Notes: a model not told the origin generated them from the sequence alone. A stretch of DNA of 48,536 bases from an uncultured archaeon (GCA_964442255.1 CAYTYC010000010.1:1-48536), one strand, 5' to 3'. Positions 148-25,727 are shown, numbered from the stretch's first letter. Made by a program: numbers and translations.

Positions 148-1233
148 TTGCCTGAAAGAAAGCCGGGAATTGTTATCGGCAGCGTGCTTGAGGATTCAAT
201 AAAGGAAATAGTCGCGTGTCTGGATGCCGGAAAAAGGTGGCCTGCTTACCTGAAAACCAAGCAATTGGTGGATTCCCTGTTTCCCTTCTGCTGCAGTGAT
301 GAAAACGGCGAGCCATTCCAGCCGAAGGAAGGCGACCTGAAGCTCTTTAAGGAATTCAAAGACTTAACGGAACCCGAAGCCAAAAAAATGAAGAGGAGCT
401 GCAGGGTTCAAATAGACGTGGGCGGGCTTTTTGACGACTTGGAGGAAATCCGTTATCAAATGGAAAAAAAGAAGTATTCTGAAGCAAAGGAAAGCCTGGA
501 AGGAATTCTCGTGGAACTGGAAAAACTCGGCAGCCAGGCCCCGGGAAAAACCGGTTCAAAGTACGAATTGAAAGGGGAAGGCGAAGAACTGGCTTTAAAT
601 TCGGAAACCGGTGCAGGCAAACAAGGAGAAGATAAGCCAATGAAAGAAAGCAAAACAGGCGATTCTGGTTTGAGTGGCCCCACAATGGAAGATGTCGAGG
701 ACCTTTTTAAAGGAAAAACCGGTTTTAAGGACCGGGAAGAATTAATTGACGTCATTTACAAAGGAATCAAAAACCCGGGGGTGTTTGGCTATGACTTTGC
801 CGACATAAGGGGCATAATAACCAAAAACTCGGACTTTAAGCTCATTAAAACCTTTTTGAACGAAATACAGGAACACCAGGAAACCATTGACAGTTACTCC
901 GACGTCTTTTTTGTTTTCACCGGCGGACCCGACGACACACTGGGCTTCACTGAATCAATCATTGAAAAACACTTTTACAGGGCCGCAAATTGCATGTGCC
1001 TTGGCGGCATAGACCCAAACGCTGAAAGCGGAAACCCGAAACTGGAAATCATTCTTGCAAAAAAACGGAAAAAAGCGCAGCTGATGACAACATTCTCCGG
1101 AAACAGGAAAACCATTTCGGACTTCAATAAACTCCTGAAAGAATACAATTTGCAGGACAAAAAATTAACGGAATTCAGCGAATTGGACAAAGCGGTTTAC
1201 AGGGACATCAAAAAATTCGTGAAAATGATTTAA
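148..1233 (+). CDS. Hypothetical protein with an apparent FtsZ C-terminal-like domain (no tubulin signature motif)
   Basis: ORF 118..1233; TTG at 148 follows a GGGTGG SD-like site. Segments NPGVFGYDFADIRGII and FVFTGGPDDTLG...CLGGIDPN...LEIILA resemble the FtsZ T7 loop and C-domain. No GGGTG(S/T)G. Confidence 0.6.
   Translation: MPERKPGIVIGSVLEDSIKEIVACLDAGKRWPAYLKTKQLVDSLFPFCCSDENGEPFQPKEGDLKLFKEFKDLTEPEAKKMKRSCRVQIDVGGLFDDLEEIRYQMEKKKYSEAKESLEGILVELEKLGSQAPGKTGSKYELKGEGEELALNSETGAGKQGEDKPMKESKTGDSGLSGPTMEDVEDLFKGKTGFKDREELIDVIYKGIKNPGVFGYDFADIRGIITKNSDFKLIKTFLNEIQEHQETIDSYSDVFFVFTGGPDDTLGFTESIIEKHFYRAANCMCLGGIDPNAESGNPKLEIILAKKRKKAQLMTTFSGNRKTISDFNKLLKEYNLQDKKLTEFSELDKAVYRDIKKFVKMI
1192..1233 (+). 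repeat. Direct repeat A, copy 1 (42 bp; last 14 codons of the upstream ORF including TAA)
   Basis: gcggtttacagggacatcaaaaaattcgtgaaaatgatttaa is identical at 2249-2290. Confidence 0.97.
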
Positions 1234-1320
1234 GAAGGAGTTAACCCCCACAACTATGCTGCAAAACCATGCAAACGAAAACCATATATACGCTGAGTAT
1301 GCCAATATATACATACGCAC

Positions 1321-1338
1321 ATACGCATATATGCGTAT
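1321..1338. promoter_or_regulatory. Perfect 18-bp palindrome, putative autoregulatory operator of the TA pair
   Basis: atacgcatatatgcgtat equals its own reverse complement. It lies just upstream of the GGTGA SD and the ATG at 1357. Confidence 0.6.
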
Positions 1339-1356
1339 ATTCAAAAGGTGAAAAAA

Positions 1357-1506
1357 ATGGCAAAACCGATTGAACCGACGCCTGTTTTAACAAATGCTAA
1401 CGCGAAGGCGTTCTGGGAATGCATGGCAAACACAAAACATGATGAAAAAAAGGAATTAGAACTTGAAAAGAGTAGGGCCATTTATCGCCTCTTCTCTGAA
1501 AGATAA
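1357..1506 (+). CDS. Small putative antitoxin (49 aa) upstream of GNAT toxin
   Basis: Hand translation MAKPIEPTPVLTNANAKAFWECMANTKHDEKKELELEKSRAIYRLFSER, with a GGTGA SD. MAKPI-x-x-TP-x-L small proteins commonly precede GNAT toxins. Confidence 0.7.
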   Translation: MAKPIEPTPVLTNANAKAFWECMANTKHDEKKELELEKSRAIYRLFSER

Positions 1507-1519
1507 ACTTGTGATTTGA

Positions 1520-2149
1520 GTGCTGATTTTTGCAGACTCTGAAAAAGCATTCAACAAACTGTTAAAAGAACTTGAATGGATAGAAATTCAAAAGTTATCT
1601 GCTGAACACGGCTTGCTCGATTTTTGCTGCGGCACTGACGCAGAAGACGAAGAGTTAGGCAAATTCCTCAAAGAGGACTCTTTGAAACAACAAGAAGAAC
1701 ACGCCAATGTCACGTATGTCGTTGTTTTAAAGGGAAGCAAAAAAGCGATAGGTTATGTGACAATCTTAAACGACAAGCTAAAAGTCTCAAACAAAGAAAA
1801 AGGGGATATGCAGATTAAATCAAGATACAGCGAGTTCCCTGCAATCAAAATAGGAAGACTGGCAGTAGACAAAAACTACAAAAGAAAGAAGGTTGGAACA
1901 ACAATGCTTCGTTATATCCGGGGATTAGCCCTCACTACTGCTGAAAAAACTGGTTGCAGATTCCTTATCGTGGATTCTTACCCCAAGTCAATTGAATGGT
2001 ATTTAAAGAAAGGATTTACAGAAAATTTAATCCAGAACCAACGCACTATTGTTATCAGGGAAAACGCCAACGGGACACCAAGTGATGAAGAGAACCTGGA
2101 ACGTGAAACAATCAGCTTAAGGTATGACTTATTTAACCCAAAAAAATAG
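1520..2149 (+). CDS. GNAT acetyltransferase, AtaT/TacT-like toxin
   Basis: DFCCG..ELGKFLK, PAIKIGRLAVDKNYKRKKVGT and RFLIVDSYPKSIEWYLKKGF motifs. Confidence 0.85.
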   Translation: MLIFADSEKAFNKLLKELEWIEIQKLSAEHGLLDFCCGTDAEDEELGKFLKEDSLKQQEEHANVTYVVVLKGSKKAIGYVTILNDKLKVSNKEKGDMQIKSRYSEFPAIKIGRLAVDKNYKRKKVGTTMLRYIRGLALTTAEKTGCRFLIVDSYPKSIEWYLKKGFTENLIQNQRTIVIRENANGTPSDEENLERETISLRYDLFNPKK

Positions 2150-2248
2150 CGTTTTTATAATACTTATCATTTTGGCATTTTCTTTTTCCCTGTTTTTGCC
2201 TCTCAAAAATTTTTTTTTCACCCACACTCAGTTTAAACACCCAACAAG

Positions 2249-2290
2249 GCGGTTTACAGGGACATCAAAAAATTCGTGAAAATGATTTAA
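2249..2290 (+). repeat. Direct repeat A, copy 2 (42 bp)
   Basis: Identical to 1192-1233. Extends to 47 bp with one mismatch (acaaA vs acaaG). Confidence 0.97.
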
Positions 2291-2297
2291 AGGGGCT

Positions 2298-2795
2298 TTA
2301 GGCAATGAATTTTGTGAGGGGTTCAACGAACCTTCGAACTTGAACCCAGTCGCCGCAGGCTGCCCTTAAAGCAGCCAGGCCCTTGGGCTTTAAAACCTGC
2401 TTTTCGCTTAAGGCTTCAAAAAAATATCTGAAAAAGACGTGGACTTCAACTGACTCCAGCGTATGCAAGATTTGGGTTTCCCGGACAACACGCAAAACAT
2501 TCTTATGCTTTGCCTTATTAATTCCGGCAATTTTCAGGATTTCAGAAACAATCCGGGCATCCCTTCTATCAAACAATCTCGCTAAAGCAGGGTTTCCTTT
2601 AGCTTCACTGGTCAGATTTATTTCCTCTGTCCTCTCATGGCCAAGCCTTGCTTTTTCCCGGTTAAACCACTGCCTGACGAGCTCCTTTCTCCTTCCCACT
2701 TCAGCCAAATGATGAAGATGCTTGGGAATCCTTGGGTCAAGCGGTGGAATCCTGCTTCTCTTTCCCCCAGACAACAAATAAGTTTTTCCAGGCAT
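2298..2795 (-). CDS. Basic orphan hypothetical protein
   Basis: 165-aa ORF starting MPGK, R/K-rich, with a promoter-like leader upstream. Confidence 0.65.
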   Translation of the reverse strand: MPGKTYLLSGGKRSRIPPLDPRIPKHLHHLAEVGRRKELVRQWFNREKARLGHERTEEINLTSEAKGNPALARLFDRRDARIVSEILKIAGINKAKHKNVLRVVRETQILHTLESVEVHVFFRYFFEALSEKQVLKPKGLAALRAACGDWVQVRRFVEPLTKFIA

Positions 2796-3026
2796 ACAAA
2801 AACATTAGGCGTAAAGTGCTTAAAATTAGCTTGCCTCCAGCAGGGTTGCGGGCGAAACGGGCGGATCTGCCGCCAAACAAAGTGAGGCAACAGTACCGGC
2901 CCGTAAACTGGGCGTGACATTTACGAGCCCAAAAGGCGAACAGGCCTGCCCCCAAAGCAAAGGGGCAGGGCACCGGCGCCAACCGACAGCAGCTGTTCAT
3001 TCCTGAAGCTTGAGGGAGGCATCGGA

Positions 3027-3081
3027 GAAACTTTTGATAAAAGTTTCATCAAAACCTCGCCTTCGGCGGAACCGCAGGTTC
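3027..3081. repeat. Cluster of three short hairpins (REP/MITE-like)
   Basis: gaaactttt-gat-aaaagtttc (3027-3047), cgcc-ttc-ggcg (3058-3068), gaacc-gca-ggttc (3069-3081). Confidence 0.55.
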
Positions 3082-3175
3082 TGATAATGACAGGAAAACT
3101 GCCCTCTGGAAAGGGTTTTAAGGGTTAAAGGCGACGGGCAAGGAAAAAAAAGGGCTTTAAAAAAAGGTGTTTTTT

Positions 3176-3799
3176 TTAAGGCAAAAAGCAAACGGAAAGC
3201 GTTACAATCGCGTTATGGGTTGCGTGAGCGATTATTGGGGGCCATAAATTGTTTTTGCTTCCGATTCTTTTGTGGCCGACAAATAATAACCCTAAAGCAA
3301 ACCCTTGAAACACTTGGAAAGGAAGAAGGCCGTGAAGAAAACCGAAAAAGACTGCCTGAAAGAACAATAAGACAATAAAAGCCAGTGAAAACCATTCTTT
3401 TAGTCTTTCCTGATTGAGCCTTAGACACAATAAAACGCCGCCAAAAATCAGTCCCCTGAAGATGAATTCCTCCCAAACGGGATGCAAAAAAACGGTTGAA
3501 ACGATGGAATTCCCCCGCGGAGAAACAGGGGCAGGGGAAACAAGCAAAAAATAAAGGCAATAAAAAGCAAAAGAAAAAACAACTGAAACCAAGACTGCCC
3601 TCCAAGAAAGCGTTTTCAGTTTAAGGCCCCCAAGAAAACGCTGCAATTCCCTCCAACGCCTTCCCCCAGAACGCGCCAAAAAAAAGGCTTCCGCACGCCC
3701 CACAATTCCATCAAAAAAAAAGGCAAACAAAAAAATTCCCAAAACAAAAAAAAACGACAAAACAAAATCAAAACCAAAAAACAAAAACAGGCAGCCCAT
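3176..3799 (-). CDS. CPBP family (CAAX/Abi) intramembrane metalloprotease
   Basis: PVWEEFIFRG, FGFLH and HATHN motifs; hydrophobic. Start uncertain (ORF is open to 3913). Confidence 0.85.
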   Translation of the reverse strand: MGCLFLFFGFDFVLSFFFVLGIFLFAFFFDGIVGRAEAFFLARSGGRRWRELQRFLGGLKLKTLSWRAVLVSVVFSFAFYCLYFLLVSPAPVSPRGNSIVSTVFLHPVWEEFIFRGLIFGGVLLCLRLNQERLKEWFSLAFIVLLFFQAVFFGFLHGLLPFQVFQGFALGLLFVGHKRIGSKNNLWPPIIAHATHNAIVTLSVCFLP

Positions 3800-3919
3800 G
3801 AAAAAAAATACCCCCCAAAAAAGCCTTAAAACAGGTTCACCCCAAAAAATCACAGGAAAAACGCCCCTCAGAAAGAAATAAATTAAAGAAAAGAGTGATT
3901 TAAACGGGTGCATTTTTTC

Positions 3920-4588
3920 GTGGCTTACAGGATTTCACCTTCTTCGCTGAATTTGCTGGCAGAATGCCCAAAATGCTTTTGGCTGTATGTGGTGAAACGG
4001 GCAAAAAGGCCTAGTGGACCGTTTCCGTCGCTGCCAAGCGGAATGGACGCAATTTTGAAGAAACACTTTGATTCTTTTATGGAGAAAGGGGAGCTTCCAC
4101 CCGAATTAAGGGAAGAGGCGTGCGTTGAGGGCTGCAAATTGTTTGATGACAGGGAAAAGTTAAGGGAATGGAGAAACAACTGGAAAGGATTACAGTACAA
4201 GGATAATGAAACCGGAGTGGAATTGCATGGGGCAGTCGACAATATTCTCGTGAAACAAGGAAAACTCATTGTACTGGACTACAAGACCCGCGGGTATCCC
4301 TTAAAAGCCGATACACACAAGCACTACCAGCTTCAAATGGACTTATACAATTTTTTGCTCAAAAAAAACGGCCACAAAACCGAATCCCATGCCTTCCTAT
4401 TATTTTATTACCCAAACAAGGTCACAAAAACAGGGGAAGTTGAATTCGACACCAAACTCGTGAAAATGCCAGTACACCCAAAAAACGGGGAAAAAAAATT
4501 CAAAAAAGCAATAAACGTTTTAAAAGAAAAAAAGCCCCCAAAAAGCTCCAGAGAATGCGAGTACTGCAAATACAGGAACGGGGAATGA
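3920..4588 (+). CDS. PD-(D/E)XK nuclease, Cas4/AddB-like (solo)
   Basis: ISPSSL..CPKC, GAVDNIL..LIVLDYKT, QMDLY and C-terminal CEYC. No CRISPR repeats nearby. Confidence 0.85.
   Translation: MAYRISPSSLNLLAECPKCFWLYVVKRAKRPSGPFPSLPSGMDAILKKHFDSFMEKGELPPELREEACVEGCKLFDDREKLREWRNNWKGLQYKDNETGVELHGAVDNILVKQGKLIVLDYKTRGYPLKADTHKHYQLQMDLYNFLLKKNGHKTESHAFLLFYYPNKVTKTGEVEFDTKLVKMPVHPKNGEKKFKKAINVLKEKKPPKSSRECEYCKYRNGE
4538..4588 (+). repeat. Direct repeat B, copy 1 (51 bp; last 17 codons of the nuclease including TGA)
   Basis: ccaaaaagctccagagaatgcgagtactgcaaatacaggaacggggaatga is identical at 5551-5601. Confidence 0.97.
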
Positions 4589-4671
4589 GGGCCTGGCGAA
4601 AGGCTTTTATAGGATTAAATTTACATATATTTGTAAATATTTCTAAATATAGAAGATGTATGGTGGCTTCC

Positions 4672-4875
4672 ATGAAAAAGGCTGAAAAAACCGGTTACAT
4701 GCGGTTATTCAACAACCCAAAAATAGGGCCAAACGGGCACAGCAAAGAATTAATTGAAATAGCCACGGCTCCAAAAATGATGGAACTATACTCAAATGAA
4801 GGGGCAGCAAAATACTTCAAAAAAATGAGGCAAGAGTTCACAAAAAAAGGCTTCTACAAAGAATTAGTCGAATAA
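4672..4875 (+). CDS. Small hypothetical protein (67 aa), possible partner of the PIN protein
   Basis: ATG at 4672 after a GGTGG SD; AT-rich upstream region with inverted repeat atttaca...tgtaaat. Confidence 0.6.
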   Translation: MKKAEKTGYMRLFNNPKIGPNGHSKELIEIATAPKMMELYSNEGAAKYFKKMRQEFTKKGFYKELVE

Positions 4876-4881
4876 AAAGCC

Positions 4882-5490
4882 TCAAAAACCCTGTTTTCTC
4901 ATTTCCCCCAACAAGGACTCCAGTTCATCAATTGTCCACACTTCAGGCACCCTAATTCTTCGCCCCATCAAACGCCTCTTAATTTTCTTCTTTTTATTCA
5001 CAAAAATCCTTTTATTAAAGCTCACAAACAAGTCAATTCCCCTAAAAACAGCGACAGTGAAATGTGCTGCATCAGGTTCTGAAACACCCAACGACACCAA
5101 AAAATTAAAAAACCGCTTATTCTCCTTTAACGTATTCCTGGTGGCCCTTTCCCCAATAACTTTTGGAGAAAACTCCTCCGCAGCCTCCAAAATTTTTCTT
5201 TTCAAGCCCTCATTTCCCTTTTTAACCTGAAAAACAGGCCTAATCTCATACACATCAATATACGAAATAAAGGTTTCGCGCCCATATTTTTTCACAAACC
5301 ACAACAAGTTTTTGCCGCACCTTTTCTGCCTCTCGTAATCCGTTTTATAACCCAAAATAGCGGTGTCAAGATAAACCGTCCTCAACCTGTCAACAATACG
5401 AACAAACTTCTTCACAATTGGCCCCGGAATGCTCTTACTCTTTGCAGCCCTCTTCTTTGCCTTCTTTTTCCGGGTTTTACGCTTAGACAC
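4882..5490 (-). CDS. PIN-domain (VapC-like) ribonuclease with basic N-terminal extension
   Basis: VYLDTAIL, SYIDVYE and PDAAHFTVAVFRGIDLFVSFN acidic PIN pattern. Confidence 0.75.
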   Translation of the reverse strand: MSKRKTRKKKAKKRAAKSKSIPGPIVKKFVRIVDRLRTVYLDTAILGYKTDYERQKRCGKNLLWFVKKYGRETFISYIDVYEIRPVFQVKKGNEGLKRKILEAAEEFSPKVIGERATRNTLKENKRFFNFLVSLGVSEPDAAHFTVAVFRGIDLFVSFNKRIFVNKKKKIKRRLMGRRIRVPEVWTIDELESLLGEMRKQGF

Positions 5491-5550
5491 AACCCCACCA
5501 AATACGGATATAACACTCTACTGCTTAAAAAGAATTCCCTAAGGCATTCA

Positions 5551-5601
5551 CCAAAAAGCTCCAGAGAATGCGAGTACTGCAAATACAGGAACGGGGAATG
5601 A
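5551..5601 (+). repeat. Direct repeat B, copy 2 (51 bp)
   Basis: Identical to 4538-4588. Confidence 0.97.
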
Positions 5602-5632
5602 AAGGATTTGGAAGAGGTAAGATTTCCTTGAA

Positions 5633-6181
5633 TCAACGGCGGCGAAAAGGCTTGCTTAAAGGAAAAGATTTCGCGGTTTTTTTTGCGTAAACCCTGTTCT
5701 TTCTGTGCAGCTCTTCAACCGAGTACTCCTTTGCAGGGTCAATTCCCTGGCGTTCAAGAAAATCACGCATTTCAGTTGAACGCGAACCAGGCGAATGCCT
5801 GAACCCAAAACCAGGAAAAGTTTTTTTCAGCCTCAAAGAAATCGCCGCATTAATTGCCGCAGTCAAAGCAGGATGAGCCAAAACGCCGTGCTCCTTTGGA
5901 TTAAAAGGCCCGCCATAAGGAAAAAAACCCCTCAAATGAACCACCTTATTTTCTCCTTTCTCCACCAAAGAAGAAAAAACCCCAACCCGCTTCCCTGACT
6001 TAAAGCCCTTTGAAGCCATATAACGCTTTACAGGCGCATAAGCAATGAAAACCTCTCCCTTTTTTTTGTCCGCCTTTCCCCCAACCCTCACAAAAGCCCT
6101 GAAAAAATCCCGGTCCTCACCCCAAGGCAAAACCTCAAACTCAATGATAACGCCAAACCCTTCCCGCATTCGCCCGGCCAT
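5633..6181 (-). CDS. Basic orphan hypothetical protein
   Basis: 182-aa ORF; upstream leader resembles that of 2298..2795. Confidence 0.65.
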   Translation of the reverse strand: MAGRMREGFGVIIEFEVLPWGEDRDFFRAFVRVGGKADKKKGEVFIAYAPVKRYMASKGFKSGKRVGVFSSLVEKGENKVVHLRGFFPYGGPFNPKEHGVLAHPALTAAINAAISLRLKKTFPGFGFRHSPGSRSTEMRDFLERQGIDPAKEYSVEELHRKNRVYAKKTAKSFPLSKPFRRR

Positions 6182-6234
6182 ACAAAAAAAAATAGGCTTA
6201 AACTGGTTAAAATTAGTTTGCCTAAAAGAAAGGA

Positions 6235-6312
6235 AAAAGCGTTAAATACAGGAAAAGCGTTAAATACAGGAAAAGCGTTAAATACAGGAAAAGCGTTAAA
6301 TACAGGAAAAGC
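6235..6312 (+). repeat. 18-bp tandem repeat (4 full copies plus a partial), BRE/TATA-like unit
   Basis: aaaagcgttaaatacagg at 6235, 6253, 6271 and 6289, then aaaagc. Confidence 0.95.
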
Positions 6313-6339
6313 CTTTTTTTTCAGGAGGGCGAAAAAGGA

Positions 6340-6642
6340 ATGAGGCCACTAAACTGGTTAAGGAAAAAAACCGCAAAAGCAAAAACAAAAACGCCTGAAG
6401 GCATTAATTGGGCGGCGGCAGGGCTTCCGGAGGCAACCATAAAAAAACACAGGAAATTCATTGAAAGAAGTTCCAACGCAACGCCCGAAGCACTGGAAAG
6501 AATAGTTGAAGTCAATCTGGCGGCAGCAAAAGGAAAACCCGGGGAACCGCCAATAAAAGGCAGGGAAACGCTTTTGGCGCGGGCAGGAATCGCAAGGCTT
6601 ATGGCGGACTACAAAAGGCAAGACAAACACCAAAAAATTTAA
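6340..6642 (+). CDS. Basic orphan hypothetical protein
   Basis: 100-aa ORF directly downstream of the tandem promoter-like repeat. Confidence 0.6.
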   Translation: MRPLNWLRKKTAKAKTKTPEGINWAAAGLPEATIKKHRKFIERSSNATPEALERIVEVNLAAAKGKPGEPPIKGRETLLARAGIARLMADYKRQDKHQKI

Positions 6643-6705
6643 ACAAAAAAAAAAAAGATAACAGGAAAAGAATTAAATACCCCTTAAAACTTTAAGTTAA
6701 AGGCA

Positions 6706-7971
6706 ATGAAAAATCTTTTACTGGCCGGAGCAATTCTTGCCGCACTGCTTTCAAGCGGCTGTACAGGCGAAACGGGAATAGAGGAAAAAGTCAAAGAACT
6801 GCCGGAAGTGCAAAAATTCCTCAACGAAAACCCCGGTGCAGGGATTGAAACAGTTTACCTGGAAAAAAAAGTGGTGCAAAGCTCCATTGAATACCTGAAA
6901 AAACAATGCGGAACAGGGTTCAAAGAAGAAGACTACTGGTACGCTTCGGTTTCAAAAGGCGAAAAAAAGCTCGAGGTTTACTTCAACGAAGACGGAACAA
7001 AAGCCGAGTGCGTTGCGGAGCCGCTGAAAGAAGAAGACAACAGAAAACCGCCTTCCACGGAATGCGTTTCCGGGGACAATTACTGCCCGCCGGGATGCCA
7101 TGCAGGGACTGATGCGGACTGTGAAGGAAAAAACTGTTCCGAGTTAAGGGGAAAAGTCTGCGAACTTGGGTGCAGGACAGAAACATTTGAAGCAGCTGAC
7201 ACGGATGAATGCTGTTTGGGCGGATGTGAGAGAGAAAAAACCTGCAGGGAACTGGGAGGAAAAGAATGCAAAACAGGGGAAACCTGCACCGGCAAATTGA
7301 TTGACGCCCCGGACACGGAAAAATGCTGTGAAGGCGAATGCAAAAAAACACAGGACTTGGCTGTGCAGGGAAAAATTACGCTGGGCGGAGAGGAAAACAA
7401 ATGCGCGGGAAACAAATTGCATGTGACAATTTCCAGCCCGTCCGCAAGCAGCCTGGAAGCCGAATACGAAGTGAAGGCGGACGGAAGCACGATTAAAACA
7501 GGTTCACTCACGGTTTACCCGGGAACACGAAGCTACGCGGTTAATGCGGGAAGCCTTCAGGCATTAAACAAAAAAATAACAGTCACCCTGGACCCCGAAA
7601 ACAAAATTGAATCCGATGCAGACAAAACAAACAATTCCGTGGAAGAACAGTTTGCGTTTGAGGCAAAAGACTATTACGTGAAAAGCCTGGAATACACAAG
7701 CGCGTTCGGAGGAATAATAAGCTACGAAATAGAGGTGGACGAGTCAACCGCGGACTGTGCTCTCGCGGAAACAAACTTATACATAAACGGGGCGCTTTTC
7801 ACCGGGCCAAAAAACTGTTCCATGAACGCGGGGGAAGACGTGGTGCAAAGCTGCACGGCGGAAACCCCTGTGGAAGGGGGCAGCACATTAAAGGTTGAAG
7901 TGGACCCAAACAACAAAATAATGGAAACAAACGAAGCAAACAACGAATACATTAAAAACACGGAGGCGTAA
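6706..7971 (+). CDS. Cys-rich secreted lipoprotein with CARDB-like C-terminal domain(s)
   Basis: Lipobox LLSSGC; repeated C-x-EL-x-GK-x-C modules; VDPNNKIMETNEANN is a CARDB-type terminus. Confidence 0.75.
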   Translation: MKNLLLAGAILAALLSSGCTGETGIEEKVKELPEVQKFLNENPGAGIETVYLEKKVVQSSIEYLKKQCGTGFKEEDYWYASVSKGEKKLEVYFNEDGTKAECVAEPLKEEDNRKPPSTECVSGDNYCPPGCHAGTDADCEGKNCSELRGKVCELGCRTETFEAADTDECCLGGCEREKTCRELGGKECKTGETCTGKLIDAPDTEKCCEGECKKTQDLAVQGKITLGGEENKCAGNKLHVTISSPSASSLEAEYEVKADGSTIKTGSLTVYPGTRSYAVNAGSLQALNKKITVTLDPENKIESDADKTNNSVEEQFAFEAKDYYVKSLEYTSAFGGIISYEIEVDESTADCALAETNLYINGALFTGPKNCSMNAGEDVVQSCTAETPVEGGSTLKVEVDPNNKIMETNEANNEYIKNTEA

Positions 7972-19203: not shown

Positions 19204-19206
19204 AAC

Positions 19207-19222
19207 CGAAACTCTTTATATA
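19207..19222 (+). promoter_or_regulatory. BRE/TATA promoter of tbp
   Basis: cgaaactc-tttatata upstream of the GGTGA SD and the TTG start at 19304. Confidence 0.6.
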
Positions 19223-19303
19223 TCCCTTTTTAAATCTTTTTAAACCACTAATTTGTTTACCTGAAACAGTTAATTTTTGGGCAGTTTGAGTTGGGGTGAT
19301 GGA

Positions 19304-20032: not shown

Positions 20033-20045
20033 TTCCTTTGAACGC

Positions 20046-20300
20046 CTAACCGTGCCTTATTTTCAGGCACAAAATTGAAAGCGCAAGAATTAACCCTACG
20101 GCATTCATTGCCGCAACCGGGCCGTTTTGGATTATCAATGCGTAAGCTATCCAAAGGCTTAGGCCTGCAATGTAAATGATGTACCTACAGAGTGAAAGGT
20201 CTTTGGTTGACCTTGTCTTCCAGCTCTTAATAGTCTGCGGAAGCAGGGAAATTACCACAAGAATTCCCGCAAGGTATCCAAACAAGCCAATGTAAAGCAT
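20046..20300 (-). CDS. SemiSWEET/PQ-loop transporter
   Basis: LLPQTIKSWKTRSTKDLS..LWIAYA..N; three TM helices. Confidence 0.9.
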   Translation of the reverse strand: MLYIGLFGYLAGILVVISLLPQTIKSWKTRSTKDLSLCRYIIYIAGLSLWIAYALIIQNGPVAAMNAVGLILALSILCLKIRHG

Positions 20301-20399
20301 TCAATAAGGGTTGGTTGTTTTTGTGTAAAAATCTTACTGGAAACTCCAAAAAAAGCCCAAGAGAAAGAAATAAAAACCCTGGGAGACACAATTAGTATT

Positions 20400-20516
20400 G
20401 ATTAGCGGCCACAGCGAAGGGGAAACACCCGGTCCCATCCCGAACCCGGAAGTTAAGCCCTTCAGCGATTAAGGCTGTACTGTTCTCTGAACGGGGCCCC
20501 TTGGACGCTGCTAATC
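20400..20516 (+). rRNA. rrf: 5S rRNA (stand-alone)
   Basis: Terminal helix gattagcggc/gctgctaatc; conserved cacccggtcccatcccgaacccggaagttaagc; T-tract downstream. Confidence 0.95.
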
Positions 20517-20820
20517 ACTTTTTATGCTGTTCCCTGTAACCGGCCTTGTTTTGCCCCATTCAAGGCAAAATACGTTTTTGGGACTGCGGTTTTCCTGATT
20601 TTTCCTTACCCCAAGCTTTTTGATTAAATTTTTTCAACATTTATTATTGGCAGTTCTTTTTTTATTTTTCCTGCATATTTTTCCCGTGCAATCCTCTATT
20701 AATCCGGGAGTTGCAACTTTGCGTTAATCAATAGTTTTTGATACGAATAGTACGGACTAAACGGGACTAATGAAAGCCTTAAATAGCTGAAAACACGTAC
20801 TGTCTTTAGGGGTTAAGCTT

Positions 20821-21468
20821 ATGGGCTTCAACAGCAGACGAGTGATTTTGGCTTCTTTAAGAGAAAGCCAAGGCTTGGTGAAAGGAAAACAACACAGTTA
20901 CTTTCACGTCCCTTTTATCTTTGAAGTAATGGACGGAAACGGCACGGAACGTTTTAAGCGTATAAACGAATTGTGTAACCTTAGAAATCCAGCCGCTTTT
21001 AGTTCCAAGTTTGCAGGGAGGGACAGGGACGCCAGGAGTGCGGCAACTAATTTCTCCAGGTTCAGTCATTCTTTGAGTACACGTTTGGCGGCCGGGCTGA
21101 AAATGACTGCAAGAGAACAGTCTGCAACAGTGCGTTTCCTGAAAACTTTTTCCAACACGACACCCCCCCGGCCTTTTTCGCTTCCAGATTGGAGGGAAAA
21201 AGGCAACCTTAACGCAAACGATTTAGCAGTGTTTGAAAACGCGTTAGGAAGACTGGTTCAAGGAATTGGAAGCAAAGCGAAAACGCAAAAAATTCTGCGC
21301 CAAATAGATGTCAGAATGGAAAGCCTCCACCGGGTTTGGCTTGATACGGGGAAAGGAAGAACAGAACGAAACGAAACAATCAGGGAGGCAGTGCACTTAG
21401 TTTCTTTCTCCATTCAACAAAGGCGAGCCATCATAAAAGGAGCTTTAGCCAAACTGGGTTCAGGATGA
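20821..21468 (+). CDS. Basic orphan hypothetical protein
   Basis: 215-aa ORF with gaaagccttaaata BRE/TATA upstream. Confidence 0.7.
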   Translation: MGFNSRRVILASLRESQGLVKGKQHSYFHVPFIFEVMDGNGTERFKRINELCNLRNPAAFSSKFAGRDRDARSAATNFSRFSHSLSTRLAAGLKMTAREQSATVRFLKTFSNTTPPRPFSLPDWREKGNLNANDLAVFENALGRLVQGIGSKAKTQKILRQIDVRMESLHRVWLDTGKGRTERNETIREAVHLVSFSIQQRRAIIKGALAKLGSG

Positions 21469-21547
21469 GCCTAAAAACTTCCTTTTAAAGGCAGGCAACG
21501 CCAATTAATATAATTGCGCCAATCACAAGAACAATAGCCTTTAGGCA

Positions 21548-21664
21548 CTACATTCCCCCATTATTTTTCCCCAAATACTTTAAGTGCTTTTGGATTACTC
21601 TCCCGTTTATTCTCACGGATTCTACTTTGTATCGGTATTCGTGTCCATTGAATTTTTTGCTCAC
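21548..21664 (-). pseudogene. Short ORF/remnant resembling the N-terminal beta-hairpin of IS1634-type transposases and some archaeal Fic proteins
   Basis: Hand translation VSKKFNGHEYRYKVESVRINGRVIQKHLKYLGKNNGGM*. Confidence 0.55.
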
Positions 21665-21692
21665 AGTTTTTCTTTAAGGTCTGCCGCTAGCT

Positions 21693-21729
21693 GTTCACTC
21701 TAAAGTGAACGGTTCACTATTTAGTGAAC
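21693..21729. promoter_or_regulatory. Two tandem 18-bp palindromic operators
   Basis: gttcact-ctaa-agtgaac (21693-21710) and gttcact-attt-agtgaac (21712-21729), next to a tttttaaat TATA-like box. Confidence 0.7.
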
Positions 21730-21764
21730 AAAGTTTTTAAATCCCATGGCAACCAATTTTCAGC

Positions 21765-22523
21765 CTATAAACTGTTCCAATAAGCCGCGGCTTCCTTCAC
21801 TTTGCCTTTATGCTCCAACAGGTATTCAATCGTCGCTTTTCCAGCATATTTCTGTGCAGTTAATTTTGACTTTATTTCCCCCCAGTTGATTATGCCTGTG
21901 CCCATTGGCTGATGCTTCAGCCATTCACCTGTTTTTCTGTCTTTTGCAACGTCAGAGAAATGAAGGTGTTTCAGCTTGTTTCCGCTCAGTTCAATAAATT
22001 TTATTATTGAAGCAGTATGCTTCTTTTCATCACTTACCGGCAAATGCGTTGTATCCAAGCACAAGCCAAAGTTCTTGAATTCTTTCAGGCCATGCAAAAA
22101 GGCCGGGACAGTTTCTGGTTCCCTCAAGTTTGCATTTTTTCTTGCCATGTTTTCAATAGTGAAAGTGATTTCCTCTGGAATTTTTTCCAAGACATATTTT
22201 ATCGAATTCTTGGTTTCCTCTCTTCTGCCATACAGACAGTGCATGTTTACCACTTTTGGCTCGAAGACAGCATTCATCTTGTGAATTACGTTTACCAGCT
22301 TCTGTGTTTCAGCAAAACTCTTGTTAATGAAATAGCTTGGCAAGTGCACCGCGTAAATTTGCATTCCTGTTTGTTTTGCTTTTCTTTTAATTTGGTTAAC
22401 CATTTTGTCGTCTGTCGGCAAGCAGTCAAACCAGAACAATACTTCACACTCCCGGAACACATCACAAAGCTTCGCCATTTCTTCCGGATGCTTTGCATTT
22501 ATTTCAGGAATCAAGTCCATCAA
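21765..22523 (-). CDS. Sugar phosphate isomerase/epimerase (AP endonuclease 2 TIM barrel)
   Basis: AVHLP, TIENM, LCLDTTH, HLHFSD, HQPMGTGIINW and ATIEY. Confidence 0.88.
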   Translation of the reverse strand: MMDLIPEINAKHPEEMAKLCDVFRECEVLFWFDCLPTDDKMVNQIKRKAKQTGMQIYAVHLPSYFINKSFAETQKLVNVIHKMNAVFEPKVVNMHCLYGRREETKNSIKYVLEKIPEEITFTIENMARKNANLREPETVPAFLHGLKEFKNFGLCLDTTHLPVSDEKKHTASIIKFIELSGNKLKHLHFSDVAKDRKTGEWLKHQPMGTGIINWGEIKSKLTAQKYAGKATIEYLLEHKGKVKEAAAYWNSL

Positions 22524-22618
22524 ACCACCTTAACTGAGGGTTGTTCTAAGCCACGGTGAAAAGGCTTTCAGCACGAAGTGCTGGTTTTCCCAAGGCTTTT
22601 TTCGGAAGGAAAAAGGTT

Positions 22619-23008
22619 TCAGTGACAATTTTTTCCAGACCCATGCTGTTTCCGTTTTTTCTTTTTTATGTGTTTTTTGAATTCTTTATCCAGTGCATTA
22701 ACTTTATAGTGGAGAAATCTCTTGAGCAGCGTCCACTCGTATTCATTGCGTGTTTTGCCTTTGTATCTGTCATAGCATTTTTTATCCAGCTCTTTTGGCG
22801 CTTCCTCAAGCCTCATCAGTCTTCCTTCCCACCACACAAGAACATTTACGTTTCCGTTATGCAGTTCAAGCGGTGTGTTCCAGCCCAAGAACCTTTTTTC
22901 TTCTTTATAGGGGGACAACTGGTCCAGTTTATTTAATTCCTTTTTTGCCATCCTGCCTAGCGACTTTCCAAAGTCATTGTGTTTCAGGTAGAATGTTGTT
23001 GTGCCCAT
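22619..23008 (-). CDS. Hypothetical protein
   Basis: 129-aa ORF with a GGGTGA SD upstream; co-oriented with the ATPase. Confidence 0.6.
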   Translation of the reverse strand: MGTTTFYLKHNDFGKSLGRMAKKELNKLDQLSPYKEEKRFLGWNTPLELHNGNVNVLVWWEGRLMRLEEAPKELDKKCYDRYKGKTRNEYEWTLLKRFLHYKVNALDKEFKKHIKKKKRKQHGSGKNCH

Positions 23009-23031
23009 TTGGCTTCACCCACTCCTTTTTT

Positions 23032-24357
23032 TTAGAAAAATTTTCTTTTAACGAATTCCCTGACTGGCAGCATTGCCAGGAAAAGGGAAACCGGCATGAT
23101 GTATATGTTTCCCTTTACGTCAAATGTTTCTTTTGTTAAGAGAAAACCTGTGTCAAACTTGTTGAGTTTTAAGTAGTCGCCCGCGGAAATGTTTTTTTGC
23201 CATTTTACTTCTACGCCGATTGTTTTTTTGTTTAGCCTGAATACAAAGTCCACTTCTCTTTTTCCGTCATTGAAGAAGTTTGCTTTGGTCAGCCTGTTTA
23301 AGTGCTCTGCCACCACGCTCTCCACTTTGCATGCAATATCCATGCTTGCGGTCGCCCATTTTTCCCCTATTTTAATGAGTAAAGGATCCCTGAAGTAGAG
23401 CTTTTTCTCTTTTTTATGCTGTACTTTAAAAGGATTTAAAGACGCTTTTTCAACCAAATTCAATACCAGCAGTTCTTCAAGCATTTCTGCGTAATCAATT
23501 ACTGTGTTGTGTGAGCTGACGCTTGTTTCCTTCCTTATCGAGTCAAATGACAGCTGTGAACACTTTTTTCTTATTATTGCTGCCAGGATTTCTTTTGCAG
23601 TAGTCGGGTTTCTTTCCGCTTTTATGATGTCTCCTTCAATCCACCGCATATACCTTTCCAGCAATATCTCTGTTACGCCCTCGTTTATCGTGCTCAGGAA
23701 ACCGCCTGTGTTTAGGTAGTTGTGTAAAAGCCTGTTGAGTGAAACTGTTTTTGTTAATTCTTCTTTCAGCACTTTTGTGTCTATTTTTTTCAGGTTAATT
23801 GAAGGCAGTTTTTTTCCAAGCAGTTCACAATATGTTTTGAAAGAAGCCGGCAGAAAAAAGTATTCTTTTCCTTCAATTCCCCTGCCAGGCAGTGTTTCTG
23901 CCCCTTTCCATAAATCCAATGCACTGGAACCGGAAACAATTAGGGCATCTTCTTTTTTGATGTCCCCCCTGTCCAACAGAATTTTTATCAGTGACTGCCA
24001 TTCCCCTATCCCAGTGATTTCGTCAAGCAAGATTGTTTTTTTTCCATCAGATGCAAGCTCTTCAAGATATGTTTCAATTACCTCGTATGCCTGTTCCTTT
24101 GCTTTGACCATGTCAAAAGAATAATAAAACACGCTTTTGCTCTCTCTTTTTTTAAGCAATTCCCGAATCATTAGTTTCATTAAGGTAGTTTTTCCAACCT
24201 GCCTGGGGCCCCTTATCGCATACGTTCCTCCTTCGATTGAGAATTGAGGGTAATACTTTATTTTTTTAGCCTCAAATTCCCTCACATGCTTGTCTTCCTC
24301 AATCGCTTCCTTTGCTTCCCACCAAGGGTTAAAGCGGATTAATTCAGCGTGCTCCAT
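23032..24357 (-). CDS. AAA+ ATPase with DUF4143 / C-terminal nuclease-like domain
   Basis: NPWW, GPRQVGKTT (Walker A), ILLDEI (Walker B), SGSSA, GGF, KKLYFRDP and EVDFV..VEVKW. Confidence 0.92.
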   Translation of the reverse strand: MEHAELIRFNPWWEAKEAIEEDKHVREFEAKKIKYYPQFSIEGGTYAIRGPRQVGKTTLMKLMIRELLKKRESKSVFYYSFDMVKAKEQAYEVIETYLEELASDGKKTILLDEITGIGEWQSLIKILLDRGDIKKEDALIVSGSSALDLWKGAETLPGRGIEGKEYFFLPASFKTYCELLGKKLPSINLKKIDTKVLKEELTKTVSLNRLLHNYLNTGGFLSTINEGVTEILLERYMRWIEGDIIKAERNPTTAKEILAAIIRKKCSQLSFDSIRKETSVSSHNTVIDYAEMLEELLVLNLVEKASLNPFKVQHKKEKKLYFRDPLLIKIGEKWATASMDIACKVESVVAEHLNRLTKANFFNDGKREVDFVFRLNKKTIGVEVKWQKNISAGDYLKLNKFDTGFLLTKETFDVKGNIYIMPVSLFLAMLPVREFVKRKFF

Positions 24358-24390
24358 GCTGATATTGTAATGACAACACTTTTATAAATA

Positions 24391-24412
24391 TATTGTCAGT
24401 GCACTGACAATA
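24391..24412. promoter_or_regulatory. Perfect 22-bp palindrome at the ATPase promoter
   Basis: tattgtcagtgcactgacaata, adjacent to tttataaa. Confidence 0.7.
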
Positions 24413-24517
24413 AAATTCGCTGGAATAGGGCCTGCAGTTGCGGGCATTCAACCTATAATCGATTCTACGTTAAGTGGGGCTGGCCCAAAATTTAAAAAAC
24501 CCTTCTCGGGCACTTGC

Positions 24518-24531
24518 GACGCTGCTAATCA
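24518..24531 (+). repeat. Copy of the 5S rRNA 3' end (att-like repeat C2)
   Basis: gacgctgctaatca is identical to 20504-20517; upstream cgggcacttgc is loosely similar to cggggccccttg. Confidence 0.8.
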
Positions 24532-24720
24532 AAATTTTTGTTAAAAACCATGCAGGCAACGTAAAAATAAAGCAGGCTAAGACAGCGAAATTTTGAAGCC
24601 AATTTTTTCTATACGGGGCATCGCCTGTTTTTCTGCAAATTGCGTGTTTTTTAAGGGTTTTGCAGCTGTTTTTGTTCTGCAAACAATATGTTTTTATATT
24701 GTAAACACAATGTTTTTGTT

Positions 24721-25260
24721 ATGCTCGCGGCAAAACTGTTTTCCTCCAATGAAAGGATTAGGGTGGTTGAACTGCTTTTGTATCAGCCGGAAAAGGAGTT
24801 GAAGGTCAGGAAAATCTCAAGAGCCGCCGGCGTTAGCCCGGCACTTGTTTCAGGCACCATAGCAATCCTTAAGGCACACGGAATAGTTAAAGGCGGAATG
24901 GCAGACTGCCTTCACCCGGCGGCAAAAGCCATGAAAATAATGCTTAACACTGAAAAAATTGAATCAATGAAACTGGTTCAGAAGGCAAAAGCCCTGTTCA
25001 AAAACTGCAAGGGCATTGGCCTGTATGGAAGCTGGGCAAACGGCACAAACAGCAAAGACAGCGATTTGGATTTGTGGATAAAGGCAGGCGGGGAAAGCGA
25101 TGAAAAAATAGCCGAATTTAGGAGAATCTTTAAGCGCCTTGGCCTGGAAGCAAATGTTATTGTGCTGACGGAAAAGAGGCTTAAGGAGTTAAAAGAAAAA
25201 GACTTTGTGTTCTATTGTTCTTTGCACAATTCTTTTGTATTGTGGGGGGAAGGCCCGTGA
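24721..25260 (+). CDS. HTH + minimal nucleotidyltransferase (MNT antitoxin)
   Basis: N-terminal HTH (VRKISRAAGVSPALVS); LYGSWANG..DSDLDL. Confidence 0.88.
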   Translation: MLAAKLFSSNERIRVVELLLYQPEKELKVRKISRAAGVSPALVSGTIAILKAHGIVKGGMADCLHPAAKAMKIMLNTEKIESMKLVQKAKALFKNCKGIGLYGSWANGTNSKDSDLDLWIKAGGESDEKIAEFRRIFKRLGLEANVIVLTEKRLKELKEKDFVFYCSLHNSFVLWGEGP

Positions 25261-25673
25261 TTGGCTTCAAAGAATGCGTTGAAAAAGGGCTTTTGAGAAG
25301 AATACCGCCTTCAAGAGAAAAAGCAGTTCAAAGCATTGGAAAGGCAAAACAGCTTCTTGAAGAAGCAAAAGCAAGCCTTGAAGAAGGCAGAGTAAACTCA
25401 ACAATAATCGTTGCCTACCTTGCCATTTTTCATGCCGCAAGGGCAATGCTTTTCAAAGACGGCTACAGGGAAAAAAGCCACGAGTGCACAATACGCTTCC
25501 TGGAAGAAAAACACCCTGAAATAAACCTCAAAAAAACAGAATCTTTGGAAAAATACAAAAGCGAAAGAAGCCATACCCAGTACGATGTAACCTACAGCCC
25601 AAATGAAGAACAAGCAGAAAAAATGGTAAAATTCACGGAAAAATTCATTCAAACCATGGAAAAGCTTGTATGA
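25257..25673 (+). CDS. HEPN-domain protein (MNT-HEPN TA toxin)
   Basis: AYLAIFHAARAML..GYREKSH..ERSHTQY; GTG start overlaps the MNT stop. Confidence 0.88.
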   Translation: MIGFKECVEKGLLRRIPPSREKAVQSIGKAKQLLEEAKASLEEGRVNSTIIVAYLAIFHAARAMLFKDGYREKSHECTIRFLEEKHPEINLKKTESLEKYKSERSHTQYDVTYSPNEEQAEKMVKFTEKFIQTMEKLV

Positions 25674-25710
25674 AAAACCCGACAACACATTGGGCGATTA
25701 GCTTGCCCAA

Positions 25711-25727
25711 ACGCTGCCAATCACTTT
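25711..25727 (+). repeat. Second downstream copy of the 5S rRNA 3' end (att-like repeat C3)
   Basis: acgctgccaatcacttt vs acgctgctaatcacttt at 20505-20521 (16/17 identical). Confidence 0.75.

Follow-up and report, generated by a model that had tools for sequence, protein, structure and literature searches.

Small cassettes, mostly of toxin-antitoxin or candidate defense genes, lie between duplicated gene ends in an uncultured archaeon and its relatives

Several known processes leave two copies of a gene end around inserted DNA. Tyrosine-integrase islands have their attL and attR sites within the 3' ends of genes for tRNA, tmRNA, or proteins; derivatives that lack the integrase are known as cis-mobilizable elements. 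For archaeal att sites, repeat lengths of 42–51 nt are typical. In Campbell-type insertion-duplication, the insert ends up with a copy of the region of homology on either side, and the target gene stays intact if the homology reaches its end; this product usually comes from the laboratory, where the homology has hundreds of bases. The minimal mobile elements (MMEs) of Neisseria are exchanged by a double crossover in the flanking genes, which leaves no duplication.

The closest known phenomenon is the "insertion with long target duplication" of bacterial restriction-modification (R-M) genes. In the portions of Furuta, Abe and Kobayashi (2010; PMC2853133) that describe this class, the repeats are from 46–47 to about 400 nt long and unique in sequence, no mobility gene is present, and the cargo is of the addiction type. 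The repeat (tens to hundreds of bases) is single in the empty genome and often overlaps the 3' end of a gene. That account proposes the fill-in of a staggered double-strand break and hypothesizes a cycle of release and reinvasion; in the screen as described there, no archaeal case passed.

We analyzed a stretch of 48,536 nt ("the window") from an uncultured archaeon whose whole assembly has 1.28 Mb. Blocks of accessory genes in the window lie between the end of a resident gene and a second copy of that gene end (Table 1). An earlier note on this DNA had placed the repeats at 1192/2249, 4538/5551, and, for the end of the 5S rRNA gene, 20504/24518/25711, and every one of them is where it had said. 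Repeat 1 is exact over 42 nt, starting at 1192; repeat 2 has sharp ends and no diverged extension. Both stop exactly at the stop codon of the target gene, which the note had also claimed. The product of target gene 1 had no match to a known family in Pfam and NCBIfam searches, and homologues of target gene 2 (56–64% identity) are found in 4 of 40 relatives. The 5S end, GACGCTGCTAATCA, is at 20504–20517 and recurs exactly at 24518–24531. The third copy has the C variant GCCAATCA, which is the native 5S end in two other genomes (G002 and G177). The 13-mer at the 5S end has three matches in the window, versus 0.02 expected from 100 shuffles.

Table 1. Gene ends, their extra copies, and the cassettes between them, in window coordinates.
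Feature	Coordinates	Strand	Details
Target gene 1 (ORF)	118..1233	+	371 aa; last 47 nt duplicated downstream; from the ORF list
Repeat 1, gene-proximal copy	1187..1233	+	46/47 nt identical to 2244-2290; right end is the TAA of ORF 118-1233
Cassette A	1234..2243	+	52-aa ORF (1348-1506); GNAT acetyltransferase (1520-2149; Pfam GNAT families)
Repeat 1, distal copy	2244..2290	+	Single mismatch close to the left end
Convergent gene after repeat 1 distal copy	2298-2795	-	7 nt gap
Target gene 2	3908..4588	+	226 aa; PD-(D/E)XK (Cas4-like) nuclease-family protein; Pfam PDDEXK_1, E 7.7e-18
Repeat 2, gene-proximal copy	4538..4588	+	51/51 nt identical to 5551-5601; right end is the TGA of ORF 3908-4588
Cassette B	4589..5550		67-aa ORF (4672-4875, +); 202-aa ORF (4882-5490, -); G+C 39.3%
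Repeat 2, distal copy	5551..5601	+	51/51 to the proximal copy
Convergent ORF after repeat 2 distal copy	5633-6181	-	31 nt gap
5S rRNA gene	20401..20516	+	Target of two tandem insertions; Rfam RF00001, 77.5 bits
5S block 1	20518..24517		215-aa ORF (+); xylose-isomerase-like TIM barrel (21765-22523, -); 129-aa ORF (-); AAA_14-DUF4143 ATPase (23032-24357, -); Pfam
5S 3' end, second copy	24508..24531	+	14 nt exact; 23 nt match the 5S profile, positions 95-117 (nhmmer)
5S block 2	24532..25710	+	MNT-type nucleotidyltransferase with wHTH (24688-25260); HEPN protein (25215-25673); Pfam NTP_transf_2, HEPN
5S 3' end, third copy	25711..25727	+	16/17 nt
Amidohydrolase C-terminal fragment abutting third 5S copy	25726-25983	-	Convergent; Pfam Amidohydro_1, positions 294-345 of 345 only

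The genome is a scaffolded metagenome-assembled genome with N gaps, so strain variants or collapsed repeats might have been joined in tandem. However, Logan contigs cover 1204–2290 (cassette A, with zero differences) and 4559–5580 (cassette B). These contigs were built with k = 31, too short to reveal an empty site when the repeat has 42–51 nt. In independent contigs assembled from two runs, the cassette and the two junctions are recovered for repeats 1 and 2 with no change in sequence, and the depth matches that of the flanks (7.67 for the cassette versus 7.5). Circles, empty sites, and excision products did not appear among them. Both of the runs that hold the window belong to a single study and are possibly the source sample, but the layout at the 5S end is also found in 13 other assemblies. 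We consider an artifact extremely improbable.

The position of these repeats is not random. Across the whole assembly, we identified local direct repeats (25–150 nt, at least 85% identity, 0.5–20 kb apart) and counted those whose end coincides exactly with the stop codon of an ORF (100 aa or more), with 2,000 random shifts as the null. This happened for 3 of the 33 repeats, while the random-shift mean was 0.062 and none of the 2,000 shifts reached three: gene-end repeats are enriched genome-wide, as the earlier note had expected. The third case is on contig C8, where the distal copy is a 48-nt fragment and the cassette includes a gap of 100 Ns. The two copies on C8 have five differences, all in the left 21 nt; four of these are at third codon positions, which is a small base for an argument (chance about 0.045). 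For the protein-gene cases, we found no strain-level relative (the best homologues have 60–64% amino acid identity), and hence no true empty site.

The duplication scheme is not specific to 3' ends. In another genome (G024), the first 30 codons of a PD-(D/E)XK homologue, along with 23 nt upstream, are duplicated (91/114 identical) and enclose the gene for a 548-aa nucleotidyltransferase. Also, in G101 and G170, relatives of the MNT-HEPN pair lie between repeats of quite another kind (a 22–24-nt tRNA-like end and a 28-mer), so the flanking copy is no fixed property of the cargo family.

The cassettes have a foreign character, with a G+C content of 38–41.6% versus 43–47% in the flanks. For instance, cassette A has 38.0% G+C (0.380, versus 0.443 and 0.460 on its two sides), and 5S block 1 has 40.9%. 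This agrees with the earlier claim that the blocks were inserted, as do same-family relatives that have ordinary genes directly after the 5S gene. The claim that the blocks have similar periods is not meaningful: in relatives, 5S cassettes span 0.57–5.9 kb.

Most of the note's cargo calls also stood, as Pfam supports the GNAT, MNT, and HEPN proteins, the AAA_14-DUF4143 ATPase, and the xylose-isomerase-like TIM barrel. The call of PIN for the ORF at 4882–5490 has no HMM support, and no protein of cassette B matched any HMM; this protein is possibly PIN-like, with a language-model lead (0.92) as the sole basis. The gene pair of cassette B (60% amino acid identity) is also found in 1 of 214 other genomes (G084), at a different place. 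Cassette A may encode a toxin-antitoxin-like pair. The ATPase of 5S block 1 matches the PADLOC candidate defense family PDC-S01 (E = 2.4e-36), and the pair in 5S block 2 corresponds to PDC-M05A/B. Across the window and the relatives, the toxin-antitoxin or defense cargo includes HicA, HicB-like, AbiEii, Fic, PIN, NYN, HEPN, and MNT proteins by Pfam, and PDC-S01 and PDC-M05 by PADLOC. Other cargo includes RNR, ArgG, a methyltransferase, and a TIM barrel. The cargo (GNAT, MNT-HEPN, DUF4143 ATPase, NYN, Fic, HicAB, AbiE, and others) is not of the restriction-modification type.

The 3' end of 5S rRNA is a recurrent insertion point. We searched 215 genomes for the 5S-end motif, which is carried by 77 of them. 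In 14 of the 77, there are at least two same-strand copies on one contig, with the extra copies 0.7–5.9 kb downstream; as a control, the reversed pattern gave 20 scattered matches. NYN, Fic, HicAB, AbiE, PIN, MNT-HEPN, and other genes lie between the copies. All 17 of the fetched loci with a 5S match have one 5S gene each, and in all 19 of the relatives' loci with DNA upstream of the 5S gene, the order of TBP and 5S is kept. For three of the 14 arrays (in G005, G012, and G024), the contig lacks the 5S gene because the array begins at the 5S 3' end or within it. The extra copies are fragments of the 5S 3' end, 14–31 nt long, with variable left ends; the copy in G089 is a diverged fragment of 31 nt, and some copies bear variants that are native to other lineages. 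Throughout the order, the final 13 nt of 5S rRNA are conserved. Five genomes of the same family have ordinary genes directly after the 5S gene. Where same-family genomes have a single 5S-end copy and then ordinary genes, the downstream genes differ, so these are not empty sites in the strict sense.

Between genomes, a cassette together with its site has 83–91% nucleotide identity, versus 70–80% for the neighboring TBP gene. For instance, a Fic cassette and its site are 86% identical between G120 and G128 (75% for TBP), and the place of this cassette differs: first in one of the two arrays, second in the other. Further cassettes have identities of 83% (families f23 and f5) and 87–91% (f1 and f17).

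The cassettes do not carry a recombinase. Integrase and resolvase models had no match among the 51 ORFs of the window that we scanned, consistent with the earlier claim that the window has no integrase, and Phage_integrase and Resolvase had no match among 30 cassette ORFs from the relatives' loci or 29 of the window ORFs. None of the 14 arrays has an integrase in or beside it. The claim that cassettes without their own recombinase recur also held up, with 5S arrays in 14 genomes. In the whole assembly (G000), there is one tyrosine recombinase, which is Xer-like, on contig C3; one TnpB-like gene, on C21; and no serine recombinase, reverse transcriptase, or Cas1. Across the 14 genomes, four have one tyrosine recombinase (G000, G122, G123, and G127, with only the conserved Xer-like gene), one has none that we detected (G128), and nine have 2–7. 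Reading the cassette ends in the window and the relatives, we saw no inverted ends, and a helix-I-like inverted repeat is present at some cassette ends only. A transposon, insertion sequence, or casposon does not fit, with duplications that vary from 13 to 51 nt, no Cas1, and a TnpB-like gene only elsewhere. Nor does an integron, as no tyrosine recombinase is near any array and the site at the cassette end is a linear copy of the 5S end. The shared core of the two copies is part of the target gene's 3' end, as in an att site, but an integrative element with its own tyrosine integrase does not fit the 14 arrays without an integrase.

To explain these observations, we propose, with a probability of roughly 45%, that the cassettes bring along a copy of their target's 3' end and enter through a single crossover, as in Campbell-type recombination. 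The cassettes would be horizontally acquired units of about 0.6–6 kb, mostly with toxin-antitoxin or candidate defense genes. A circular or ends-in form of the cassette would recombine once with the resident gene end, and either the host's machinery for homologous recombination or a trans-acting enzyme would perform the crossover. The resident gene would be left intact to its stop codon or RNA end, and the resulting order would be gene, cargo, second gene-end copy, and original downstream DNA. Recombination between the two copies could free the cassette again. The cassettes may be mobile today. Because the last 13 nt of 5S are so conserved, 5S-end cassettes could enter many lineages and pile up as arrays, while protein-gene-end cassettes would stay local.

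Campbell-type insertion predicts exactly the layout that we see, although the homology is 13–51 nt here, unlike in the laboratory, and the circular donor is hypothetical. Judging from sequence comparisons, the extra copy would belong to the cassette: the variable left ends, the C variant, the G089 copy, and the differences on C8 count in favor. Similarly, the cassette probably moves as a unit, given that the cassette and its site are more similar than TBP. Three results agree with the earlier note, which preferred homology with relatives to a dedicated integrase: there are second copies that resemble foreign alleles, four of the 14 genomes have a single Xer-like gene and one has none detected, and in another genome the 5' end of a PD-(D/E)XK homologue is duplicated around a cargo gene. 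On the other hand, 13–17 nt is short for homologous recombination, and the proposal does not explain why the first cassette starts exactly after the stop codon.

We also considered that a viral, plasmid, or chromosomal integrase might recognize the 5S 3' end (and, separately, other gene ends), with the cassettes as non-autonomous passengers that carry only an attachment site, like cis-mobilizable elements or satellites. As in tyrosine-integrase islands, the order is gene end, cargo, and second gene end; identity stops at the gene end; and there are tandem arrays at one site. The earlier note had described the targets as unrelated to each other. This is correct for the protein genes but not for 5S, where one conserved site, with a 13-nt core, is reused in 14 genomes, and this keeps a site-specific enzyme in trans in play. 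The changeable order of cassettes, as at integrase hot spots and in integron arrays, points the same way, as do the repeats of 42–51 nt, which fit archaeal att sites, and the nine genomes with 2–7 tyrosine recombinases. However, the conserved Xer-like enzyme is the only tyrosine recombinase, if any, in five of the 14 genomes, our archaeon also lacks a serine recombinase, Cas1, and reverse transcriptase, and no array holds an integrase. Several unrelated targets are used within one genome, and the three unrelated protein-gene sites would each need their own specificity. The left ends of the 5S fragments are variable. And although at least 118 viral contigs contain the 5S 14-mer, neither a 5S gene nor a longer piece of 5S is present in the 80 that we fetched, and all of their matches look like chance. 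Overall, an integrase in trans seems unlikely.

Alternatively, the repeat could be made at insertion, such as by the fill-in of a staggered double-strand break on either side of captured DNA. The layout and repeat lengths match the published class as described (PMC2853133), with small units, addiction-type cargo, and no transposase or integrase. Our inserts (0.57–5.9 kb, without an integrase or resolvase match in the cassette ORFs) fall under the 20 kb without a linked mobility gene that is stated there. The protein-gene repeats (47, 51, and 48 nt) exceed the 30 bp stated there, but the 5S repeats (13–31 nt) do not. Given this class and the scars of integrases (attL/attR), the earlier label of "candidate new gene-acquisition system" was too strong. 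Repeat 2, which is perfect and sharp-ended (51/51), would fit duplication at insertion equally well, and the repeats around one cargo family differ among three genomes. But compared to the R-M insertions as that paper presents them, the cargo here is toxin-antitoxin or candidate defense genes, the repeat stops precisely at a stop codon or RNA end, many genomes share one site (the 5S end), where arrays form, and the distal copy sometimes resembles a foreign allele instead of a fresh duplicate. Duplication at insertion does not predict foreign-lineage variants in distal copies, mismatches confined to the left part, or a cassette and site that move as a unit between families, and it gives no reason for a right boundary exactly at the stop codon in three of three cases. 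This origin seems quite unlikely. Distinctly improbable, in our view, is the earlier note's second model, in which DNA from a relative entered through two events: a homologous crossover within the target gene, and an illegitimate joint some dozens of bases upstream of the stop codon in the recipient. The end product would be indistinguishable from a Campbell insertion, the copies on C8 look like two alleles, and gene starts as well as ends are duplicated. However, the joint would have to fall repeatedly in the last 14–50 nt of the target, and the model leaves unexplained why genomes of different families, whose downstream DNA is unrelated, have the same cassette-plus-site unit at the 5S end.

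The cassettes resemble those of integron arrays and Neisseria MMEs: they are promoter-plus-gene units without a mobility gene, with cargo enriched in toxin-antitoxin and defense genes, which are swapped and reordered at a conserved chromosomal place. Unlike in integrons, we found no IntI-like integrase and no attC-type hairpin, and unlike in MMEs, the gene end is duplicated. We tentatively suggest, as a possibility on which we would not bet, that the 5S 3' end and the ends of genes that abut a convergent neighbor are integron-like docking points without a dedicated recombinase in this archaeal order. Defense cassettes (a promoter and a gene) might use an address of 13–50 nt and circulate, stack, and reshuffle by host recombination alone. 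If so, ultra-small genomes would have a general way to gain genes without a recombinase.

The genome that holds the window (G000, a metagenome-assembled genome) is 1.28 Mb in 51 contigs and 93.8% complete, and the window carries the archaeal markers TBP, L21e, Rpb4, DUF655, KsgA, and AglB/STT3. The earlier note's repeats are present where it had placed them, and the two that copy protein-gene ends (repeats 1 and 2) do stop at the stop codon. The window contains three matches to the 5S rRNA end, versus 0.02 expected. A genome-wide scan identified a third protein-gene case, on contig C8, where an RFC-like gene has its final 48 nt repeated past a 1-kb cassette. The whole assembly has 33 local direct repeats, three of which terminate precisely at the stop codon of an ORF that is 100 amino acids or longer. 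With randomly shifted positions, the mean was 0.062, and three was reached in 0 of 2000 trials. At all four sites, a convergent gene ends 0–31 nt past the distal copy (the second copy, beyond the cargo), so the empty state would be a tail-to-tail junction with nearly no spacer. The 10-mer TTCGTGAAAA near the stop is common to repeat 1 and the C8 repeat, whose target genes are unrelated; this sharing may be chance.

Coordinates of repeats, cassettes, and neighboring features (in the window unless another contig or locus is named)
Feature	Location	Description
Repeat 1	1187-1233, 2244-2290	46/47 nt identical; ends at stop codon of a long ORF
Shared 10-mer	1216-1233; C8 26776-26790	Near the stop in repeat 1 and the C8 repeat
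Cassette A	1234-2243	GNAT acetyltransferase and small upstream ORF
G+C-rich stretch	2800-3175	Non-coding, between two minus-strand genes
PD-(D/E)XK gene	3908-4588	Target of repeat 2
Repeat 2	4538-4588, 5551-5601	51/51 nt identical; ends at stop codon
Cassette B	4589-5550	67-aa ORF and 202-aa ORF (PIN lead only for the latter)
Short tandem repeat	6235-6324	18-nt unit, five head-to-tail (four exact, last partial), upstream of 100-aa ORF 6340-6642
5S rRNA gene	20401-20516
5S block 1	20518-24517	TIM-barrel protein, two unknown ORFs, AAA_14-DUF4143 ATPase matching PADLOC candidate PDC-S01
5S-end copy 2	from 24518	Final 13-14 nt of 5S
5S block 2	24532-25710	MNT-HEPN pair; matches PDC-M05
Complementary stretch with 5S-end copy	25695-25724; L033 (G024:C52) ~1860-1900
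5S-end copy 3	25711-25727	Final 13-14 nt of 5S, one mismatch
Amidohydrolase remnant	25726-25983 (-)	Last 85 residues (profile positions 294-345 of 345); adjoins 5S array
Glycan-biosynthesis cluster	26194-48023	AglB/STT3, many glycosyltransferases, epimerases, radical SAM enzymes
N6/N4 DNA methylase	33109-34101	Lone, within glycan cluster
~114-nt repeat, examples	C8 6150-6262, 13021-13131, 15349-15461	GC-rich hairpin
Duplicated post-5S element	L029 (G123) 2205-2300, 3816-3910; also L030 (G127)
Duplicated gene start	L010 (G024:C40) 5355-5468, 7281-7394	91/114 nt identical
tRNA-like 3' end	L184 (G101:C1) 102-123, 1457-1480, 2976-2999	Three copies, 22-24 nt

The cassettes have lower G+C (38–41.6%) than their flanks (43–47%) and look foreign. 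Cassettes A and B are real, not assembly products: k=31 contigs assembled independently from two runs of a single study contain the two cassettes with both of their junctions, at the same depth as the flanks. (The read-derived data are Logan k=31 contigs from three runs of that study, and no join that skips a cassette was reported among them; as repeats 1 and 2 are longer than k, empty sites or circles are invisible in them.) As for the cargo proposed in the earlier note, the GNAT protein, the ATPase/isomerase block, and the MNT-HEPN pair hold up, while the PIN protein of cassette B is only a lead. A homologue of cassette B in the related genome G084 is similar only in its coding parts (~69% nucleotide identity), with no repeat seen beside it to mark the ends of the cassette in that genome.

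Logan contigs break at the G+C-rich stretch between cassettes A and B, where their summed depth is ~4x that of the flanks; no Rfam family or tRNA is called there, and it is probably a multi-copy element. Elsewhere in G000, the ~114-nt repeat is dispersed on contigs C1, C8, C13, C14, and C35. A second dispersed repeat, of ~200 nt, lies at the ends of C5, C6, C8, C11, C23, C24, C28, C40, C41, and C43, and probably causes assembly breaks. We considered that C41, C43, and C47 might be circular cassettes, and rejected this because their terminal repeats are members of a dispersed family present at the ends of many contigs.

The 3' end of the 5S gene is a hot spot common to related genomes. Of the 215 genomes of the phylum that we searched, 77 have the 14-mer of the 5S end with no more than one mismatch. 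In 14 of these, two to four copies lie on the same strand of one contig, 0.7–5.9 kb apart; a control search with the reversed pattern gave 20 scattered matches. We retrieved 17 loci in which 5S is matched, each with one 5S gene; three of the 14 arrays (G005, G012, and G024) begin within the 5S 3' end or right at it, with the 5S gene itself off the contig. Compared with a profile that we made from these 5S genes, the extra copies are pieces of the 3' end, 14–31 nt long, whose left ends vary. The upstream order TBP–5S is kept in all 19 relatives' loci that include this DNA. In five same-family genomes, each with one copy, ordinary genes lie immediately 3' of 5S; in one same-family genome, the HicAB cassette lies at a contig end. 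The DNA between copies encodes NYN, Fic/DOC, HicAB, AbiEi/AbiEii, PIN, GNAT, methyltransferase, and nucleotidyltransferase-pair proteins, and two long inserts at the 5S end encode ribonucleotide reductase, or argininosuccinate synthase plus others.

In several genomes, 5S is followed by an element of ~75–87 nt that is duplicated along with the 5S end and perhaps represents a conserved trailer of stable-RNA genes. A short complementary stretch precedes some of the 5S-end copies that cassettes carry, and the two together mimic helix I of 5S rRNA. We also considered a viral attP for the 5S end. At least 118 viral contigs contain the 14-mer, but in the 80 that we fetched we found neither a 5S gene nor a longer piece of one, so we attribute these matches to chance.

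The simplest account of all the cases is a single crossover, to which we assign a probability of roughly 45%. Incoming DNA would bear a short copy of a gene end and would recombine once with the resident gene end, leaving the gene intact and the homology duplicated. This account fits the protein genes, 5S, the variable lengths of the fragments, the foreign-looking distal copies, the arrays, and a duplicated gene start (described below). The distal copy seems to be part of the cassette. Copy 3 of the 5S end in the window has ...GCCAATCA, which is the native 5S end in the relatives G002 and G177, not in G000; the extra copy in G089 is a diverged 5S fragment of 31 nt. In the C8 distal copy, all five differences are in the left 21 nt and four of the five are at third codon positions, which weakly suggests, from these five differences only, a fragment of a functional allele from elsewhere. 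Between G120 and G128, the Fic cassette and its site are 86% identical (TBP, 75%; both pairwise), and the cassette's position in the array differs. Two further cassette families are 83% and 87–91% identical (pairwise) between genomes of different families; over all these comparisons, TBP identity is 70–80%. On the other hand, repeat 2 is perfect, without any extension, which counts against a cassette-borne distal copy. If the duplication were instead produced upon insertion, the distal copy would be made at the site; we think this is rather unlikely. Insertion with long target duplication is known from reports on several bacteria, and the screen in that work retained no archaeal case (PMC2853133).

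At the 5S site, a site-specific enzyme might act in trans, which we consider unlikely, if slightly less so. Nine of the 14 genomes with 5S arrays have 2–7 tyrosine recombinases, four have only the conserved one, and in one none was detected. G000 has a single tyrosine recombinase, which is Xer-like and lies outside the window, on C3 (62333-62818); it also has one TnpB-like gene, and we found no serine recombinase, reverse transcriptase, or Cas1 in the assembly. No ORF of the cassettes matches an integrase or resolvase model. Finally, one homologous crossover plus one illegitimate crossover could bring in the cargo; this seems improbable to us. None of these models, including the single crossover, accounts for the exact stop-codon boundary of the proximal copy (the target gene's own end) in 3/3 cases.

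Other results cut the other way. Homologues of the MNT-HEPN cargo are found in 12 of the 215 genomes, and elsewhere they are never at the 5S end. In G101, a tRNA-like 3' end is present three times and delimits two cassettes, one with HicB/HicA and others and one with MNT-HEPN; in G170, the MNT-HEPN pair is flanked by two copies of an unrelated 28-mer. Because these flanking repeats differ, the address is not fixed for the cargo family. At the end of each G101 cassette is an ORF of ~145 amino acids; these ORFs are paralogous and seen in G101 only. We rejected the 147-aa ORF beside the repeat copies as a hidden mobility gene, as it belongs to no family and is confined to G101. The 22-nt string of G101 is also duplicated in the closed genome G023 (at 392650 and 394177), and no tRNA is called at the repeat sites of either genome.

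We also scanned the first 400 kb of G023 (1.24 Mb). Of 15 local direct repeats, none cleanly has the exact stop-codon pattern, so the clean protein-gene cases of this analysis are those of G000. One gene-end duplicate (552 nt, 90% identity) keeps its frame open and could be a paralogous domain. Two others resemble tRNA 3' ends, with no tRNA called by ARAGORN or Rfam. For the PD-(D/E)XK gene, the best matches among 40 relatives are homologues in four of them, at 56–64% amino-acid identity; in metagenome contigs the best identity is 60%. We found no strain-level empty site among these relatives and contigs. In G024, the PD-(D/E)XK homologue has its 5' end, not its 3' end, duplicated, and between the two copies lies a cargo gene (548 aa, DUF6036 nucleotidyltransferase-HTH). 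The duplicated start comprises the first 30 codons and 23 nt upstream. In the same genome, the homologue's stop is 10 nt away from the end of a gene for a MazF-like toxin.

DPANN archaea have tiny, tightly packed genomes with few recognizable mobile-element genes, so how they gain defense and toxin-antitoxin genes is poorly understood. We found nothing in the literature on integration at the 5S end or on such cassettes in these archaea. The 5S-end motif with a second copy within a few kb offers a handle for finding such cassettes in metagenomes, and with them the variable defense repertoire. Should host recombination be enough by itself, these cassettes would be an archaeal counterpart of, and provide a testable mechanism for, the "long target duplication" puzzle of bacterial restriction-modification systems. 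And if a short gene-end copy is all that docking takes, then cargo would be added at tail-to-tail junctions with both genes unbroken, and a conserved RNA end would become a hot spot common to families.
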